NCBI RefSeq assembly: GCF_050320075.1
Contig: NZ_CP190018.1
Source: Escherichia coli
GTDB lineage: Bacteria > Pseudomonadota > Gammaproteobacteria > Enterobacterales > Enterobacteriaceae
Length of the DNA stretch: 64,000 nt
Reading direction: 5' to 3' (one strand)
Shown piece by piece: positions 35,034 to 45,043 of this stretch (position 1 is the first letter of the stretch; each line of letters begins with the position of its first letter). A model generated the notes under the pieces. The model did no database searches, had not been told where the DNA came from, and saw only the letters and a list, made by a program, of their open reading frames with translations. The position numbers and the translations under genes were made by a program.

Positions 35034-35170
35034 GATATGGGGTTTTGGTCGTTGTTAATGAGCAGGACAATCATGACCGCCAACGACTGGATTCTCCCTT
35101 GGTTTATGTTTGTCAAAGCTCAGTGAAAATGTCTAATCACTGGCTCATTAGAAATGTCCATATGTTGAAA

Positions 35171-35203
35171 AGGCCGCTGCGAAAATCCCTCCCGCAACGG
35201 CCT
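35171..35203. terminator. Hairpin between convergent hipA and the SIR2-like gene (possible bidirectional terminator)
   Basis: 11-bp stem with one mismatch (AGGCCGCTGCG / CGCAACGGCCT), 11-nt loop; short T-run on the minus-strand side. Confidence 0.4.
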
Positions 35204-35232
35204 CTTTAGCATAACGTCATTATGCGAACCAA

Positions 35233-36585
35233 TTATGGTTTGAGTTTATACTTCTGACCATTAATGATTTTTTTGATTAACTCGAATGCAGCGGGGGAAT
35301 ATTTATGAACACCTTCCTTCCCCGTTTTCACTAGCACATGATAGTTATTATCTGAGGATTTAATATTAAAACCAGTTTCCTTGTGTATTCTTTCTAATAC
35401 TTTATGGACGTAATGCCAAGATCCCATATCAAGTAATTTTGCAAGTTCAGATATGGTGTAGGGATAGCTTGCGTTAAGTGCTTGCCCATTATTTAACTCT
35501 GCAATTCCATAAAGTTTCGCTAACACGTTATCTTGCTCAGCAATGTTCTTAAGCATTTCAAAATCATATGGAAGCTCTTGTTTTACAAGAGATTGAGAGG
35601 CAAATGTATAGGTTCTGGCTAATAGCGCCCTGACTAATTTTGGGTTAACACTGATTTCTGGCGTATTTGACGATAGGGCATCATAAATCCAACCGAAATC
35701 ATTGGCATAGATCACTTTGATTCGGATGCTTTTATTTTCACCAACACCAATCAAAATCTCTTTCTGGTGTGAACCTGTACCTTCACATTCTGGACTAAAG
35801 GAAACCAAATAAATATTCGGAATCAAAGCGTTATTTGGCGCAATTATCTCATCAATATCAGACAGGATGGCTTTAATATTCTCATCATTAATACTATAGC
35901 CAATGAAGAACAACGGATGCTCGACGAAATATGTTAATAGTTTTGCACTGATATACTTTTTACGCTTATAAAACTCAACATAGTCTTCATTTGTTATAAT
36001 GATGCTTTCTGGTTCTTTACTACTGCCGTGAATCTTCATGATTTCACCGTATGTAGTATAGTTAACAGTCACAACATTATGGCCAACTATCGGTTGGTAG
36101 TTATCAAATATCTTTTCAAGCAGATCGTCATAGTTTGTTGTAATAATGGCATGGGGCCTTACTTTTTTTAACTTTTCAATTTCTTCAGTGTACTCCATTG
36201 CTGAAAAATCAACCGAGTCTGAAAGGTTATTCAACAATGTTGCAATCTCATGCTTGATATATATATCTTTAGAGCTTTTTCCATTGAAATACTGTTCAGG
36301 ATAACGAGATGTCCCCACATCCCAAGCCCACTCAGCGTATGACTCAGAAAAATCACTTGCTATCATTGGTTTATTGTCATTTCTTGTTTGACTGTAGTAA
36401 CCATACGGGCGAGTGATTAATGGGCAAGTTTCAGCGAGATACTTTAACAGGTTTTCCCAATCAGGAGCTTTCAAGTAGCGTTGAGATACCCCTGCACCCA
36501 TAAAGAGAATTGGCTGTACCTGTAAACCTTCAAGACATGATTTGATATCTTCAATTATTTCTGTCTGATATTCAGAGAAGTCCAT
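35233..36585 (-). CDS. SIR2-like (SIR2_2 / ThsA-DSR-type) domain protein with uncharacterised C-terminal domain; candidate NAD+-depleting anti-phage effector
   Basis: 450 aa; SIR2_2 hallmarks PILFMGAGVS (res 25-34), IITTNYDDLLE (res 147-157, putative catalytic Asn151), KIHGS (His186), EHPLFFIGYSINDE (res 222-235); C-terminal about 190 aa with no recognised family; gene is markedly AT-rich. Confidence 0.75.
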   Translation of the reverse strand: MDFSEYQTEIIEDIKSCLEGLQVQPILFMGAGVSQRYLKAPDWENLLKYLAETCPLITRPYGYYSQTRNDNKPMIASDFSESYAEWAWDVGTSRYPEQYFNGKSSKDIYIKHEIATLLNNLSDSVDFSAMEYTEEIEKLKKVRPHAIITTNYDDLLEKIFDNYQPIVGHNVVTVNYTTYGEIMKIHGSSKEPESIIITNEDYVEFYKRKKYISAKLLTYFVEHPLFFIGYSINDENIKAILSDIDEIIAPNNALIPNIYLVSFSPECEGTGSHQKEILIGVGENKSIRIKVIYANDFGWIYDALSSNTPEISVNPKLVRALLARTYTFASQSLVKQELPYDFEMLKNIAEQDNVLAKLYGIAELNNGQALNASYPYTISELAKLLDMGSWHYVHKVLERIHKETGFNIKSSDNNYHVLVKTGKEGVHKYSPAAFELIKKIINGQKYKLKP

Positions 36586-36799
36586 ACTTTAGCCTTTAGG
36601 ATGTGAGATGCTGGAGTAGTAAATCGCCGCGGAGCGGTTCGGGGTTCTGTGACACCCGAATTTTACCTCGGTTTCCTTTGTATATAATATCATTGAAGTT
36701 ATTTGCATTTCTCAGAAATCTTCTCTGGCTTTGATTGCTATAGCCGAAAGATAGCGCACACTTCGCCGTTGGTCAGTTAGTACGAGGTTTCCGCCAAGT

Positions 36800-37835
36800 T
36801 CACCTTTTACCAAAGATGGCCTCAGAGCTTCCCTGAAGCTTTATCATGGTTTCAAGTAGGTCATCTTCGTTCAGTGAGCGCTGAGATTTGTTGATGCTAG
36901 GCGCGTGCCGTCTGCGGGAAGGCTCATCACCAGAACAAGGTAACGATAGTGAGCGATTATTGTCCCGTTTTCTCTGGACCTGACGGGCAACATCCAACAC
37001 ATGGCCAAGTCTCTTGTTATCTACAATGGCGACGGGCTCAACCTCAGAAAGCCGGTCATAGGTGGAGTAGGGTAGCAGCACGCCATTTAGTCGCAGCTCC
37101 TTATGTCCGTCAGGATAATGCCAGACATCAATATACTTGCCGATGGCTCTTCGACTGTACTCGTTGTCCTCAATCAGATAGAGCATTTTATCGTATTGTA
37201 CAGTCAGATTTTTTGATACCCGGCGAGGCTCTCGCCAGGTAAATTCTGCATCAAGGTCATCGTCTAATGCCAGCGGCCGGTACGCGTTAAAATCATGCAA
37301 GGGTTCTTTGGCAAAGCGCCGGTTATAATCCGCCATGTATTCTTCTGCAAATGCATTGGCCGCTTCTATTGTACAGATCCCCTTAAGCCTGAGCTCCTTA
37401 ACGAGTCGGTCCTGAAGTGTCAAATGAGCACGTTCAACGCGGCCTTTTGCCTGGCTGGTTTCAGCACACAAAGGAGTAATATTAAGGCAGCGCATGGCCC
37501 TGGCAAACTGGGTATCGCCGAGACCGGTGGTGGCGTGCTTATTATTGACTCTGAATACGCTGGCTTTATCGCTGTAGAGGATCATCGGTTTACCGTATTC
37601 AGTGGTGGTCGCAGCCATCAATTTGTATCAGCTCGCCAGTACAAGGACGCCGGTAACGAGGCTGATGAATTTTCGGTGCGCGTTGTCTGCGGGGGATCCA
37701 GAGTCCCGCGTTTATCATGAGACGTCGGATGGTTTCCTTTCCAAGGACCAGACCGTGAACTTCCTCCAGCTTTTCCCGCGCCAGCGTGGGGCCAAAATCA
37801 CGGTAGTGCTCCCGGATTATACTGAGTGCCTCCAA
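36800..37835 (-). mobile_element. Remnant IS element: DDE (integrase-core) transposase gene disrupted by a frameshift
   Basis: Two overlapping minus-strand ORFs (37599..37835 N-terminal HTH part ending …IQIDGCDHH; 36800..37621 catalytic part …ILYSDKASVF…AETSQAKGRVERAHLTLQ); family not confidently assigned (IS481/ISNCY-like); IS ends not identified. Confidence 0.6.
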
Positions 37836-43789: not shown

Positions 43790-43904
43790 CCCTTATTCAC
43801 TTTTCCTCCTCTCGTCTTTGAGAGCGCCAGTAGCGGTCGGTTACGTTCTTACCAGCACCAGTTGATCGAACGTCTTAAACAGTAACGTCAGTAAAAAGAT
43901 CATC

Positions 43905-44630
43905 GTGAAAAAGACTTTTATGCTTTTAATTTGCATGCAAATAAGCAGCCCTGTCTTTGCAACAAAACCGGACGCGCCGAATAAGCCGGAGATGAATATC
44001 TTCGAGCTCGGCATCAGACCCGATCGGGACAACGACTTTGCAGACGTGGCCAGACAGACGATTTCCGCTTCGGTTGATCATGAAGCAGGTACACTGGCGA
44101 TGTATGCCCTGCAACGCAGCGACAATTCAGGTCAGGCATTCATGTTCGAACTCTATGAAAATGAGCGTGCTTATCGCAAACATCTCAATGCCGCCCCATA
44201 CAAAGCATTCGCTGCTCGTGCACCTGACATTATTGACAGGAAGAAGAAAATTACCCTGGAGCCACAGTTTCTGGGCGACAAACACATCATACCGAATGAA
44301 CGAACTATCAATAATCTGGTGATCGTCGAAGTAAAGCCTGAATTTCAGAGCGAATTTAGAAACATCGTCCTTCCTGAAATGGTCGAGTCGCTCAAAGTAG
44401 AGAAAGGCGTGTTAGCCATGTATGCCGGTACAGATTCAGAGACTCCAAAACGCTGGTATTTCTATGAGATTTACGCCAGTGAGGAGGATTATCAACTGCA
44501 CCGACAAACGCTGCACTTCCTGGATTACCTCAGGCAAACGGCGCATATGAGCGCCAGGAAGGACGCAATCCCGGTAAAACCGGTATTTCTTCGTAACAAA
44601 GGCGGAATCAAACAGGAGCCGCAACGTTGA
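43905..44630 (+). CDS. Putative secreted protein with tandem ABM (antibiotic-biosynthesis-monooxygenase-like) domains
   Basis: 241-aa ORF with N-terminal hydrophobic signal-like segment and two ABM-like halves (AMYALQR…FELYENERAY; AMYAGT…YEIYASEEDY); start uncertain. Confidence 0.5.
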   Translation: MKKTFMLLICMQISSPVFATKPDAPNKPEMNIFELGIRPDRDNDFADVARQTISASVDHEAGTLAMYALQRSDNSGQAFMFELYENERAYRKHLNAAPYKAFAARAPDIIDRKKKITLEPQFLGDKHIIPNERTINNLVIVEVKPEFQSEFRNIVLPEMVESLKVEKGVLAMYAGTDSETPKRWYFYEIYASEEDYQLHRQTLHFLDYLRQTAHMSARKDAIPVKPVFLRNKGGIKQEPQR

Positions 44631-44645
44631 CCAGTAAGGATTAAC

Positions 44646-44885
44646 ATGAAAAGCGTACTTGCAGCAGCGGCTATGTCGCTTGTTATTTCTGATTTTGCTA
44701 ATGCTGAGGAAACAAGAGGTAAAGCTATGATGAAAATAGAACCGTCAGCGATTTCGGAAGCTGATATTCGTTCCGTCTCACCGGCTCTCGCGCGCTTTGG
44801 TCGCGAAGCTATTACTGAAGATCTGTGGACACGCGACGCCCTCTCACCGAGGGATCGTAGAGTAGTTAAACTTACTGTTATTTAA
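44646..44885 (+). pseudogene. Truncated carboxymuconolactone decarboxylase (AhpD-like) family fragment
   Basis: 79-aa ORF with CMD-like N-terminal motif (…ALSPRDRRVV…) ending abruptly; sits at the island/fimbrial junction. Confidence 0.4.
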
Positions 44886-45043
44886 AATATTTACTTTGTA
44901 GCAAGGTTTTCCTATTAAAAGAGAACCAACATTTATTACAAACGCATTAAGTCTGGAAACCCGGCGAGTCGCCAATGTATTAGCAACATTTACCGATTGT
45001 CTGATGTAACGGTTTCCCCGCTTATCCTCTTAACACATGGAGA

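Follow-up and report, generated by a model that had tools for sequence, protein, structure and literature searches.

The window analysed here is a 64,000-nucleotide stretch of Escherichia coli DNA, 100% identical to E. coli YZLc1-3. Between hipA and the F9-type fimbrial genes, the interval 35034-45043 can be split into three independent pieces and native DNA (Table 1). The accessory DNA proper covers 35111-37877 and 37906-44860, whereas 35034-35105 and 44861-45043 are native spacer. Genome comparison showed that the parts differ both in their boundaries and in their occupancy, all occupancy and junction counts referring to 5,426 complete E. coli genomes. In K-12-type genomes, only dif, a yneL remnant and truncated fimbrial genes are found at the same place. 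No integrase is annotated in the interval and no tRNA lies in it, features by which a classical integrase-type genomic island would be recognized.

Table 1. Positions in the window of the features at the dif locus and in the adjoining fimbrial operon.
Feature	Position	Strand	Remarks
Target-site duplication, left copy ATGTT, 5 bp	35106-35110	.	Compared with the uninterrupted haplotype
Decayed transporter IS, 2,762 bp	35111-37872	-	Absent from the otherwise collinear M114
Cargo cassette: SIR2 ORF and 41 bp of its own 5' leader, GC 36.4%	35232-36626	-	Boundaries from comparison with L005
SIR2-domain gene, intact, 450 aa, GC 36.4%	35233-36585	-	Pfam SIR2_2, PADLOC PDC-S25
Transposase pseudogene (ISNCY)	36800-37808	-	Annotated as frameshifted, incomplete
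Target duplication, right copy ATTTT, one mismatch	37873-37877	.	Between IS left end and XerC arm
dif, XerCD chromosome-dimer resolution site	37878-37905	+	GGTGCGCATAA-TGTATA-TTATGTTAAAT
LysR-regulated oxidoreductase/detoxification cluster, 6,955 bp left of 7,784 bp	37906-44860	+	Genome comparison
LysR gene, divergent from the cluster	38199-39098	-	
102-aa YCII/MIase-fold protein	39237-39545		
DJ-1/PfpI	39554-40243		Pfam DJ-1_PfpI
Aldo-keto reductase, first	40317-41264		Pfam Aldo_ket_red
Amidohydrolase pseudogene fragments	41367-41901		Pfam Amidohydro_2
Quinone-reductase-like Flavodoxin_2 gene	42195-42767		Pfam Flavodoxin_2
Aldo-keto reductase, second	42770-43789		Pfam Aldo_ket_red
Tandem-ABM protein	43935-44630		Pfam ABM
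CMD gene stump	44646-44860		
2,417-bp deletion junction	44860/44861	.	M114 (L002) 12123-14539 missing
F9-type fimbrial chaperone	45053-45763	+	
F9 usher, 3'-truncated	45805-47484	+	
IS1 copy	47485-48251	-	No target duplication; flanks non-contiguous

The dif site is an exact 28-bp GGTGCGCATAATGTATATTATGTTAAAT, the sole match in the window (chance expectation 0), and it corresponds to the E. coli consensus in its 11-bp XerC arm, 6-bp centre and 11-bp XerD arm. The arms agree with Table 8 of PMC10132070. The identical 28-mer was found at the same place in M114, UTAK-13, BUCT2930, Rb-50, 2009C-3133 and one Enterobacter chromosome, and one-base variants in L006 and L010. All four KOPS (GGGNAGGG) to the left of dif are on the plus strand and all eight to its right on the minus strand, the polarity switching at dif in 12 of 12 cases. 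The cumulative GC skew has its maximum near 35-38 kb, though at the scale of the window this signal is weak. Judged from these features, 37878-37905 is the native XerCD/FtsK site, with a predicted role in dimer resolution in vivo. Exact 28-bp site, KOPS convergence and position beside hipA are those of the E. coli dif/XerCD-FtsK system; the site itself is no different, but here acquired DNA directly abuts both arms. The initial annotation had overlooked dif, although it is the organizing feature of the interval.

On the XerC side lies the decayed IS, in which the order on the minus strand is IRL, transposase pseudogene, spacer, cargo, terminator-like hairpin and IRR. By its sequence the element is assigned to the ISAba32/ISAjo2 subgroup of the IS1202 family and is related to ISKpn21. 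Its scaffold is 97.5-98.3% identical to that of an IS on plasmid pVTB937v-1, and over 266 aa the remnant of the transposase shares 71% identity with a transposase of BUCT2930 (L004), annotated in RefSeq as an ISNCY-like element ISKpn21 family transposase. Two segments present in L005 are missing from the transposase region, one of 134 bp at 37599/37600 and one of 311 bp at about 37832. The ends of the IS are imperfect inverted repeats (16 of 26 positions matching) with a shared subterminal TGGCTCATT block; the distal end is TGT, and the proximal end is TAT in the window but TGT in both L005 and L004. The uninterrupted haplotype of M114 and Rb-50 reads ...GGTTTATGTT/GGTGCGC and is matched by the left copy of the target duplication. 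In the window the two copies of the target duplication, ATGTT and ATTTT, match at four of five positions, and relatives show perfect 5-bp repeats (ATGTT/ATGTT in L005, ATATT/ATATT in L004). The pair in the window is read as a 5-bp duplication seen through decay, to which the repeat mismatch and the TAT terminus would both be due.

A spacing of 5 bp between IS and XerC arm is seen in the window, at the chromosomal dif of BUCT2930 and at the plasmid dif-like sites of L005 and L040, as against 3-4 bp in L059. This is in line with the published behavior of the subgroup, which inserts beside the XerC arm with a 5-bp duplication (PMC10132070; bioRxiv 10.1101/2022.12.17.520857). M114 carries the cluster without the IS, and the IS-dif-cluster junction occurs in 215 of the 5,426 genomes (about 4%). 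An IS1202-family transporter IS would have inserted at a distance of 5 bp from the XerC arm, in the orientation that is typical of its subgroup and fixed, duplicating 5 bp. According to the published behavior of the family, its transposase would recognize the XerC side of dif-like sites, so that targeting may depend on Xer sites. The transposase later died while the SIR2 ORF remained intact, and the copy in the window is unable to transpose on its own. The element resembles ISKpn21 and the ISAba32-ISAjo2 subgroup in its DDE transposase (the 71% identity refers to the ISKpn21 enzyme), in its terminal repeats, which are imperfect, have a TGT terminus and are accompanied by a subterminal repeat block, in the duplication of 5 bp at a spacing of 5 bp from the XerC arm, towards which the left IS end is turned, and in the single passenger gene that follows the transposase gene. 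It differs from them in its host site, an E. coli chromosomal dif, in being a dead copy with two internal deletions and a mutated terminus, and in its passenger, a SIR2 gene instead of the DUF6904-type ORF of ISKpn21.

The product of the SIR2 gene matches Pfam SIR2_2 (E = 3.2e-25) and, over residues 10-354, PADLOC PDC-S25 (2e-82), a candidate family only, whose model of 517 positions exceeds the 450 residues of the protein and has its C-terminal third unmatched. In alignments with DSR2 and ThsA, the residues N151 and H186 coincide with the catalytic motifs. A SIR2_2 domain with conserved Asn and His motifs is common to this protein, ThsA, DSR1/DSR2 and PDC-S25, but ThsA and DSR proteins have SLOG or large C-terminal sensor domains, whereas the gene in the window encodes a single 450-aa protein without them. 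The protein is probably an NAD+-depleting abortive-infection effector. The SIR2 segment was detected in 257 of the 5,426 genomes, and a 74%-identical paralogue occurs in prophage and satellite-type variable regions. The IS would have carried the gene to dif in a defined cargo slot.

On the XerD side lies the LysR cluster, the Pfam families of which are given in Table 1. For the 102-aa protein no significant Pfam match was obtained (best YCII, E = 0.34), and its best fold matches are TftG, ClcF and YciI, with a TM of 0.50 to muconolactone isomerase 1mli. The amidohydrolase lesion is common to all E. coli copies examined. The initial annotation had listed a low-GC defence-like gene, a frameshifted transposase and a LysR-controlled cluster with DJ-1/PfpI, two aldo-keto reductases, a flavodoxin-like and an ABM protein. 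All of these were recovered, the first as the 36.4%-GC SIR2 gene and PADLOC candidate, the second as the ISNCY pseudogene, which is also internally deleted, and the third through its Pfam families. The decay reported for the amidohydrolase and CMD genes was likewise confirmed by the Amidohydro_2 fragments and the truncated CMD gene. The muconolactone-isomerase-like label of the 102-aa protein holds weakly at the level of the fold and fails in Pfam. In its contents the cluster is an ordinary accessory operon, of interest only for its exact join to the XerD arm.

The cluster is present in 437 of the 5,426 genomes (about 8%). It starts at the first base past the XerD arm (37906), and complete copies form a clean indel of 7,784 bp that has a GTTAAAT repeat at its borders, at the outer end of this arm. 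Empty sites comprise two distinct haplotypes; those of Rb-50 and 2009C-3133 are on the same flank haplotype as the occupied ones (97.5% vs 91.8% for the K-12 type), and the first base past the repeat is G in occupied sites and T in empty ones. An Enterobacter cluster is 92-93% identical at the nucleotide level and is likewise situated to the right of dif, at a distance of 4.3 kb; its 344-aa amidohydrolase is intact and it contains one additional gene. Homology with this copy stops exactly at ...AATAGTTAAAT. In Enterobacter mori, both dif and the same leader are retained, and 101 bp survive of the ABM gene. Rahnella and Pantoea relatives are 88-92% identical in nucleotides, and the genome-wide identity of E. 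coli to Enterobacter, Rahnella and Pantoea is far below 88-93%. No relative of the cluster was detected among Escherichia species representatives. Between the window and M114, the cluster is 98.8% identical and the flanking core genes 97.8-99.2%; with such similar divergence, the acquisition would therefore be old. Four correctly oriented KOPS are located inside the cluster.

We favor an entry by recombination anchored in the identical dif, with the GTTAAAT microhomology serving for an illegitimate join. This 7.8-kb set of quinone/carbonyl-type oxidoreductases would have been acquired once, by one E. coli sublineage, from an Enterobacter-like donor in which it lay on the same side of dif and in the same KOPS-compatible orientation, and its junction would have fallen precisely where the XerD arm ends, with the 7-bp repeat left behind. 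Homology-facilitated illegitimate recombination combines one homologous anchor with a microhomology join. The likeness here consists of an identical anchor (dif, 28-31 bp) and 7 bp of microhomology on the other side; by contrast, both crossovers would fall within the same 28-bp recipient site, and our search did not recover an exact-leader donor, with dif followed directly by the 265-bp leader and the complete cluster. The opposite course, in which the cluster was ancestral at the E. coli terminus and was lost from most lineages between the GTTAAAT repeats, empty sites being deletion products, is unlikely. The restriction of the cluster to 8% of the genomes, the two distinct empty haplotypes and its absence from the Escherichia representatives argue against such losses, and the identities of 92-93% to Enterobacter and 88-92% to Rahnella and Pantoea point to horizontal transfer, even though an ancestral cluster would fit with its core-like divergence within E. 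coli, the shared amidohydrolase lesion, the four oriented KOPS, the dif-adjacent leader conserved in Enterobacter mori too and the exact bounding of the indel by repeats.

Integration by XerCD itself, leaving the cluster between dif and a decayed second Xer site as in IMEX-like elements or the dif modules of Acinetobacter, is considered very unlikely. Like CTX phage, the gonococcal genetic island and Acinetobacter dif modules, the cluster is recombinase-less accessory DNA placed directly against a Xer site; both its ends coincide with the outer end of XerD-arm sequence (TTATGTTAAAT and AATAGTTAAAT), it is associated with dif in two genera, and a TGTATA core-like motif occurs 21 bp inside its right end. 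However, these Xer-integrated elements have two recognizable Xer sites and junctions in the central region, whereas a search of M114 gave no second Xer site with <=6 arm mismatches, the 28-mer at the right end matching only 4 of 11 positions of the XerC arm and 7 of 11 of the XerD arm, and the cluster is joined at the outer end of the XerD arm. Because Xer strand exchange takes place at the borders of the central region, a Xer product should carry the full chromosomal XerD arm at the right junction. Moreover, Enterobacter L051 also has AATAGTTAAAT, though its cluster is 4.3 kb away from dif.

To the right of the cluster, a 2,417-bp deletion with a blunt junction, using no microhomology, took the 3' end of the CMD gene, the right end of the island, the yneL remnant and the F9 major-subunit gene. 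This junction is found in 2 of the 5,426 genomes (the YZLc1-3/Ec-U3 clone). M114 and all ten island-bearing contexts read contain an intact 267-aa CMD gene and a 187-aa major subunit upstream of the chaperone; the window has neither because of this separate deletion. Beside IS1, a further 1,821 bp (L002 17164-18984) are missing, with the loss of the usher 3' end, fimF/ydeS and part of fimG/ydeR, and the identical junction occurs in 2 genomes. The decay in the YZLc1-3/Ec-U3 clone would be recent, the blunt deletion having removed the right end of the cluster, yneL and the major subunit, and IS1 having deleted 1.8 kb of usher and minor-subunit genes, which would have inactivated the F9 operon.

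With a probability of roughly 0.8, the interval is a terminus dif locus that underwent separate IS, cluster and decay events. The initial annotation had proposed instead a single mosaic island of about 10 kb between hipA and the F9 operon, whose insertion deleted the 5' end of the operon; the parts are indeed adjacent and jointly absent from K-12-type genomes, but this reading is rejected as scarcely credible, since the native dif separates the parts, the cluster occurs alone in M114 and many other genomes, related ISs with other cargo sit at dif without the cluster, and fimA is kept in M114 and the ten island-bearing contexts, the deletion junction being confined to 2 of 5,426 genomes. What persists of that proposal is the accessory, mosaic nature of the DNA, reflected in the different occupancies of cluster and SIR2 segment, the K-12 counterpart with its yneL remnant and truncated fimbrial genes, to which dif has to be added, and the lack of a major-subunit gene upstream of the chaperone. 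The gene order is not conserved across most E. coli lineages and the subunit is not natively absent; the region is therefore variable. The map is corrected accordingly: what had been taken for an island is a dimer-resolution site whose two arms carry independent passengers, and a recent private deletion accounts for the missing start of the fimbrial operon.

The kinds of element found here are already known, and the modestly new part is the swapping of defence-gene cargo. The cargo slot is defined by scaffolds that are 97-98% identical and carry different genes, the shared scaffold consisting of terminal repeats, transposase gene, a spacer of about 170 bp and terminator. L005 has STM4504/CBY_0614 in the slot equivalent to the SIR2 cassette. 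No description of such swapping at the same junction was found in PMC10132070 or bioRxiv 10.1101/2022.12.17.520857. Tentatively, and at somewhat less than even odds, we propose that ISKpn21-like, dif-seeking ISs of Enterobacterales serve as a shuttle for single-gene or small anti-phage systems through cassette-like exchange, the outer end of the XerD arm being also a join point for a foreign terminus-proximal operon. If so, dif and dif-like sites, kept by every chromosome and many plasmids, would be a landing pad for defence genes in E. coli. The SIR2-carrying IS, and ISKpn21 itself in BUCT2930, provide E. coli examples of IS1202-family elements at a chromosomal dif, and the 'hypothetical' passengers of these ISs include anti-phage genes, recognized or candidate, that are exchanged at a fixed junction. 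Confirmation would link Xer sites to defence-gene traffic and offer a natural system for site-specific gene delivery beside dif. Besides STM4504/CBY_0614, near-identical or related scaffolds carry at this junction a three-gene set with an ECs_2282-family zinc-binding protein or, apparently, Shedu SduA, and in more distant IS relatives the corresponding position is taken by a ThsB-like TIR protein or an ASCH protein. The Shedu SduA copy is without its outer IS end, and IS1 adjoins it.

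Alignment of the window with M114, which has the LysR cluster and a complete fimbrial operon without the SIR2 gene and its insertion sequence (IS), and with UTAK-13, which has neither module, placed a single sequence between the two accessory parts of the interval 35034-45043. This sequence, GGTGCGCATAATGTATATTATGTTAAAT, is an exact copy of the E. coli chromosome-dimer resolution site dif, the only one in the window, with its XerC arm on the left and its XerD arm on the right. KOPS motifs are all on the plus strand to its left (4/4) and all on the minus strand to its right (8/8), the four KOPS inside the cluster being correctly oriented. 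The turning point of the cumulative GC skew coincides with dif, a weak signal at the 64-kb scale; GC skew alone was too noisy at this size to locate the terminus, and KOPS polarity was decisive. Since dif lies between the accessory parts, where both the KOPS switch and the skew turn occur, the interval is therefore the terminus dif locus. It had been described in the initial annotation as one island of about 10 kb, a description that does not survive, as a native, exact dif splits the interval and M114 carries only one of its two parts. No Rfam match was obtained in window positions 33000-49500, and no tRNA was found in 30000-50000.

Coordinates of the features discussed, in the window and in the comparison loci
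Sequence	Position	Feature	Site or remark	Passenger
Window	27793-33261	ECSE_1600-family autotransporter gene	1,822-aa ORF	
Window	35111-37872	transporter IS	left of dif	SIR2 gene
Window	37878-37905	dif		
Window	37906-44860	LysR cluster	right of dif	
Window	41265-42194	amidohydrolase stretch		
Window	45805-47484, 48252-48462	truncated F9 usher gene and fimbrial fragment beyond IS1	either side of IS1	
Window	47485-48251	IS1	no target duplication	
M114 (L002)	5166-12949	LysR cluster	7,784 bp	
M114 (L002)	12123-14539	stretch missing from the window	2,417 bp	
		candidate right-end site of LysR cluster	ATATCCCTCAAACCCAGAATAGTTAAAT	
E. coli BUCT2930 chromosome (L004)	5146-7427	related IS	dif	DUF6904 protein (ISKpn21)
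E. coli plasmid pVTB937v-1 (L005)	4006-6806	related IS	plasmid dif-like site	STM4504/CBY_0614
Klebsiella quasipneumoniae plasmid (L040)	2500-4712	related IS	plasmid dif-like site	ASCH protein
Klebsiella quasipneumoniae plasmid (L040)	4713-5651	GNAT/DUF1778 toxin-antitoxin pair	between two dif-like sites	
Salmonella IncHI1B plasmid (L059)	2109-4690	related IS	plasmid dif-like site, spacing 3-4 bp	Shedu SduA
FACU 2024 (L006)	5150	natural one-base dif variant	AGTGCGC...	
H9Ecoli (L010)	3972	natural one-base dif variant	GGTGCAC...	
L007	5129-6481	SIR2 paralogue		
L009	5120-6472	SIR2 paralogue		
LCP30S3_I5 (L012)	27700-39250	island between dif and LysR cluster	about 11.5 kb	
Enterobacter mori (L038)	9675-10104	dif, leader and ABM gene remnant		

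The segment to the left of dif, absent from M114, ends in imperfect terminal inverted repeats, is flanked by ATGTT and ATTTT, and is separated from the XerC arm by 5 bp. What remains of its transposase shares 71% identity with the ISKpn21 transposase. Within the IS1202 family, exactly such dif-adjacent behaviour has been published for the ISAba32/ISAjo2 subgroup, in which a few “transporter” members bear a passenger gene (PMC10132070; bioRxiv 10.1101/2022.12.17.520857). Four related elements of the same geometry were found in the comparison loci (see table). The scaffold is 97.5-98.3% identical to that of the pVTB937v-1 element, relative to which 134 bp and 311 bp of the transposase gene are gone; because of these losses, and because both a terminus and a repeat are mutated, the window copy is predicted to be immobile.

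The cargo cassette of this element (1,395 bp, 36.4% GC, within a scaffold of about 50% GC) lies between a conserved spacer on one side and a conserved terminator-plus-repeat on the other. In the equivalent slot, other elements carry STM4504/CBY_0614, a three-gene set including an ECs_2282-family zinc-binding protein, or Shedu SduA (full-length match, 5.8e-115), and all three start at the same spacer junction as the SIR2 cargo. Among more distantly related elements, one passenger is a ThsB-like TIR protein, accompanied by a PDC-M50A protein, and others are an ASCH protein and a DUF6904 protein. The spacer separating the transposase gene from the cargo was scanned for an internal copy of the IS end, which could have accounted for cargo capture, and no match exceeded 15/30. 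IS1202-family scaffolds with differing passengers occur on plasmids of E. coli, Klebsiella and Salmonella, and BUCT2930 has one at its chromosomal dif (L004, L005, L008, L039, L040, L059). Besides, the GNAT/DUF1778 pair directly beside the ASCH-carrying element resembles the “dif modules” described for Acinetobacter, although its host is a Klebsiella plasmid.

The intact 450-aa SIR2_2 protein encoded by the cassette matches the PADLOC candidate PDC-S25 (2e-82), and its Asn151 and His186 align to the DSR2 and ThsA catalytic motifs. This allele is absent from PLSDB plasmids, where the best match is 73%. In other E. coli genomes, a 74%-identical paralogue adjoins genes of prophage and satellite type; its surroundings look like a defence hotspot, a setting consistent with a candidate defence role of the SIR2 gene. 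This paralogue also adjoins an ankyrin-repeat gene (L007, L009), and in one strain it lies beside P2-type late genes, a reverse-transcriptase gene and satellite-like genes. Literature searches combining IS1202 or ISNCY with defence or Shedu, or addressing PDC-S25 function, returned nothing relevant in the library searched. The elements themselves are of known kinds; modestly new are the defence-type, cassette-like cargo on dif-seeking insertion sequences and the way in which a foreign operon abuts the XerD arm exactly.

The LysR cluster starts at the first base past the XerD arm and ends, in M114, with ...AATAGTTAAAT. The right-flank haplotype of island-bearing strains is also present in Rb-50 (97.5% identity) and 2009C-3133 (96.9%), the K-12 type reaching only 91.8%, and in both strains dif leads straight into this flank. 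These empty sites on the same haplotype show the cluster to be a clean indel with a 7-bp GTTAAAT repeat at its borders. Syntenic clusters with 88-93% nucleotide identity are found in Enterobacter, Rahnella and Pantoea. On an Enterobacter chromosome (L051), the cluster has the same orientation and is separated by 4.3 kb from an identical dif on its left; it includes an intact 344-aa amidohydrolase gene and one extra gene, and its homology to the E. coli cluster ends exactly at AATAGTTAAAT. Enterobacter mori has a dif with one mismatch, next to which comes a leader resembling the 265 bp that adjoin the XerD arm in E. coli and, about 300 bp further along, 101 bp left over from the ABM gene (89% identity); this is evidence that the cluster was once adjacent to dif in that genus.

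From these comparisons, we conclude that a single, ancient horizontal transfer from an Enterobacter-like terminus probably brought in the LysR cluster. The favoured, though not settled, route would be a dif-anchored recombination combined with a microhomology join. If the cluster were instead ancestral in E. coli and later deleted from many lineages, its divergence, comparable to that of the flanks, would be accommodated; however, its taxonomic distribution argues against this, no relative being detected among the Escherichia species representatives. Entry through a Xer-mediated event fares worst, as the junction is at the wrong position and the second site is absent, no dif-like sequence being found within 4-6 arm mismatches at the right end of the cluster or in the Rahnella, Pantoea, Pectobacterium and Serratia loci. 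Decay is visible in the amidohydrolase gene, which has a 340-bp deletion common to the E. coli copies examined and further indels in the window. This stretch is 95.3% identical to M114, with 5 gaps, against 98.8% for the rest of the cluster, which is consistent with relaxed selection after the shared deletion.

Among 5,426 complete E. coli genomes, the cluster (at least 80% covered) was present in 437 (all but one of 500 matching places being chromosomal), the SIR2 segment in 257 and the IS-dif-cluster junction in 215. Further traffic at dif is illustrated by ISKpn21 itself in BUCT2930. In LCP30S3_I5, dif and the LysR cluster are separated by an island with two genes for tyrosine integrases, an ABC-three-component system and an Xre/HTH pair, and at its right end a degenerate site, CTGGATTCTCGCTCAACATAAGTTAAAT, precedes the dif-adjacent leader. 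In H9Ecoli, dif and the same leader are followed by two integrase genes, the left part of a related two-integrase island.

The fimbrial operon begins with the chaperone gene, and it had been proposed that the island insertion removed its start. The M114 stretch that the window lacks comprises the final two-thirds of the CMD gene, the right end of the island, the yneL remnant, and the gene for the major subunit together with the region upstream of it. Each of the ten island-bearing contexts recovered by way of an identical DJ-1 protein retains the 267-aa CMD gene and the 187-aa subunit, and the deletion junction occurs in only 2 of the 5,426 genomes; therefore, the island insertion did not remove the operon start. 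No microhomology was used at this deletion, both GTAG copies remaining at the junction. A second private event, an IS1 with an adjacent 1,821-bp deletion, truncated the usher gene and eliminated minor-subunit genes. The identical IS1/usher junction is limited to YZLc1-3, whose chromosome is identical to the window, and Ec-U3 (2/5,426 genomes). Other strains carry IS1 elsewhere in the same operon.

The RefSeq order is hipBA, the SIR2 gene, an ISNCY transposase pseudogene, the LysR gene, eight downstream genes or fragments, the truncated CMD gene, the fimbrial chaperone gene, the truncated usher gene, IS1, a fimbrial fragment and ydeQ. Pfam families on identical proteins elsewhere (DJ-1_PfpI, Aldo_ket_red for two genes, Amidohydro_2, Flavodoxin_2, ABM and CMD) agree with this annotation, so that the gene list of the initial annotation was essentially correct; overall, its observation was partly confirmed and its interpretation partly supported. 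Its label “muconolactone-isomerase-like” holds at the fold level only: the 102-aa protein has no significant Pfam match, and its predicted model (pLDDT 78) best matches YCII/muconolactone-isomerase-type alpha+beta barrels, TftG and ClcF (TM 0.50 with muconolactone isomerase). Judged only from these families, the cluster would encode LysR-activated quinone/carbonyl reductases and related enzymes, partly decayed. Immediately upstream of hipBA, the very large autotransporter gene is intact in the window and frameshifted or truncated in several comparison strains.
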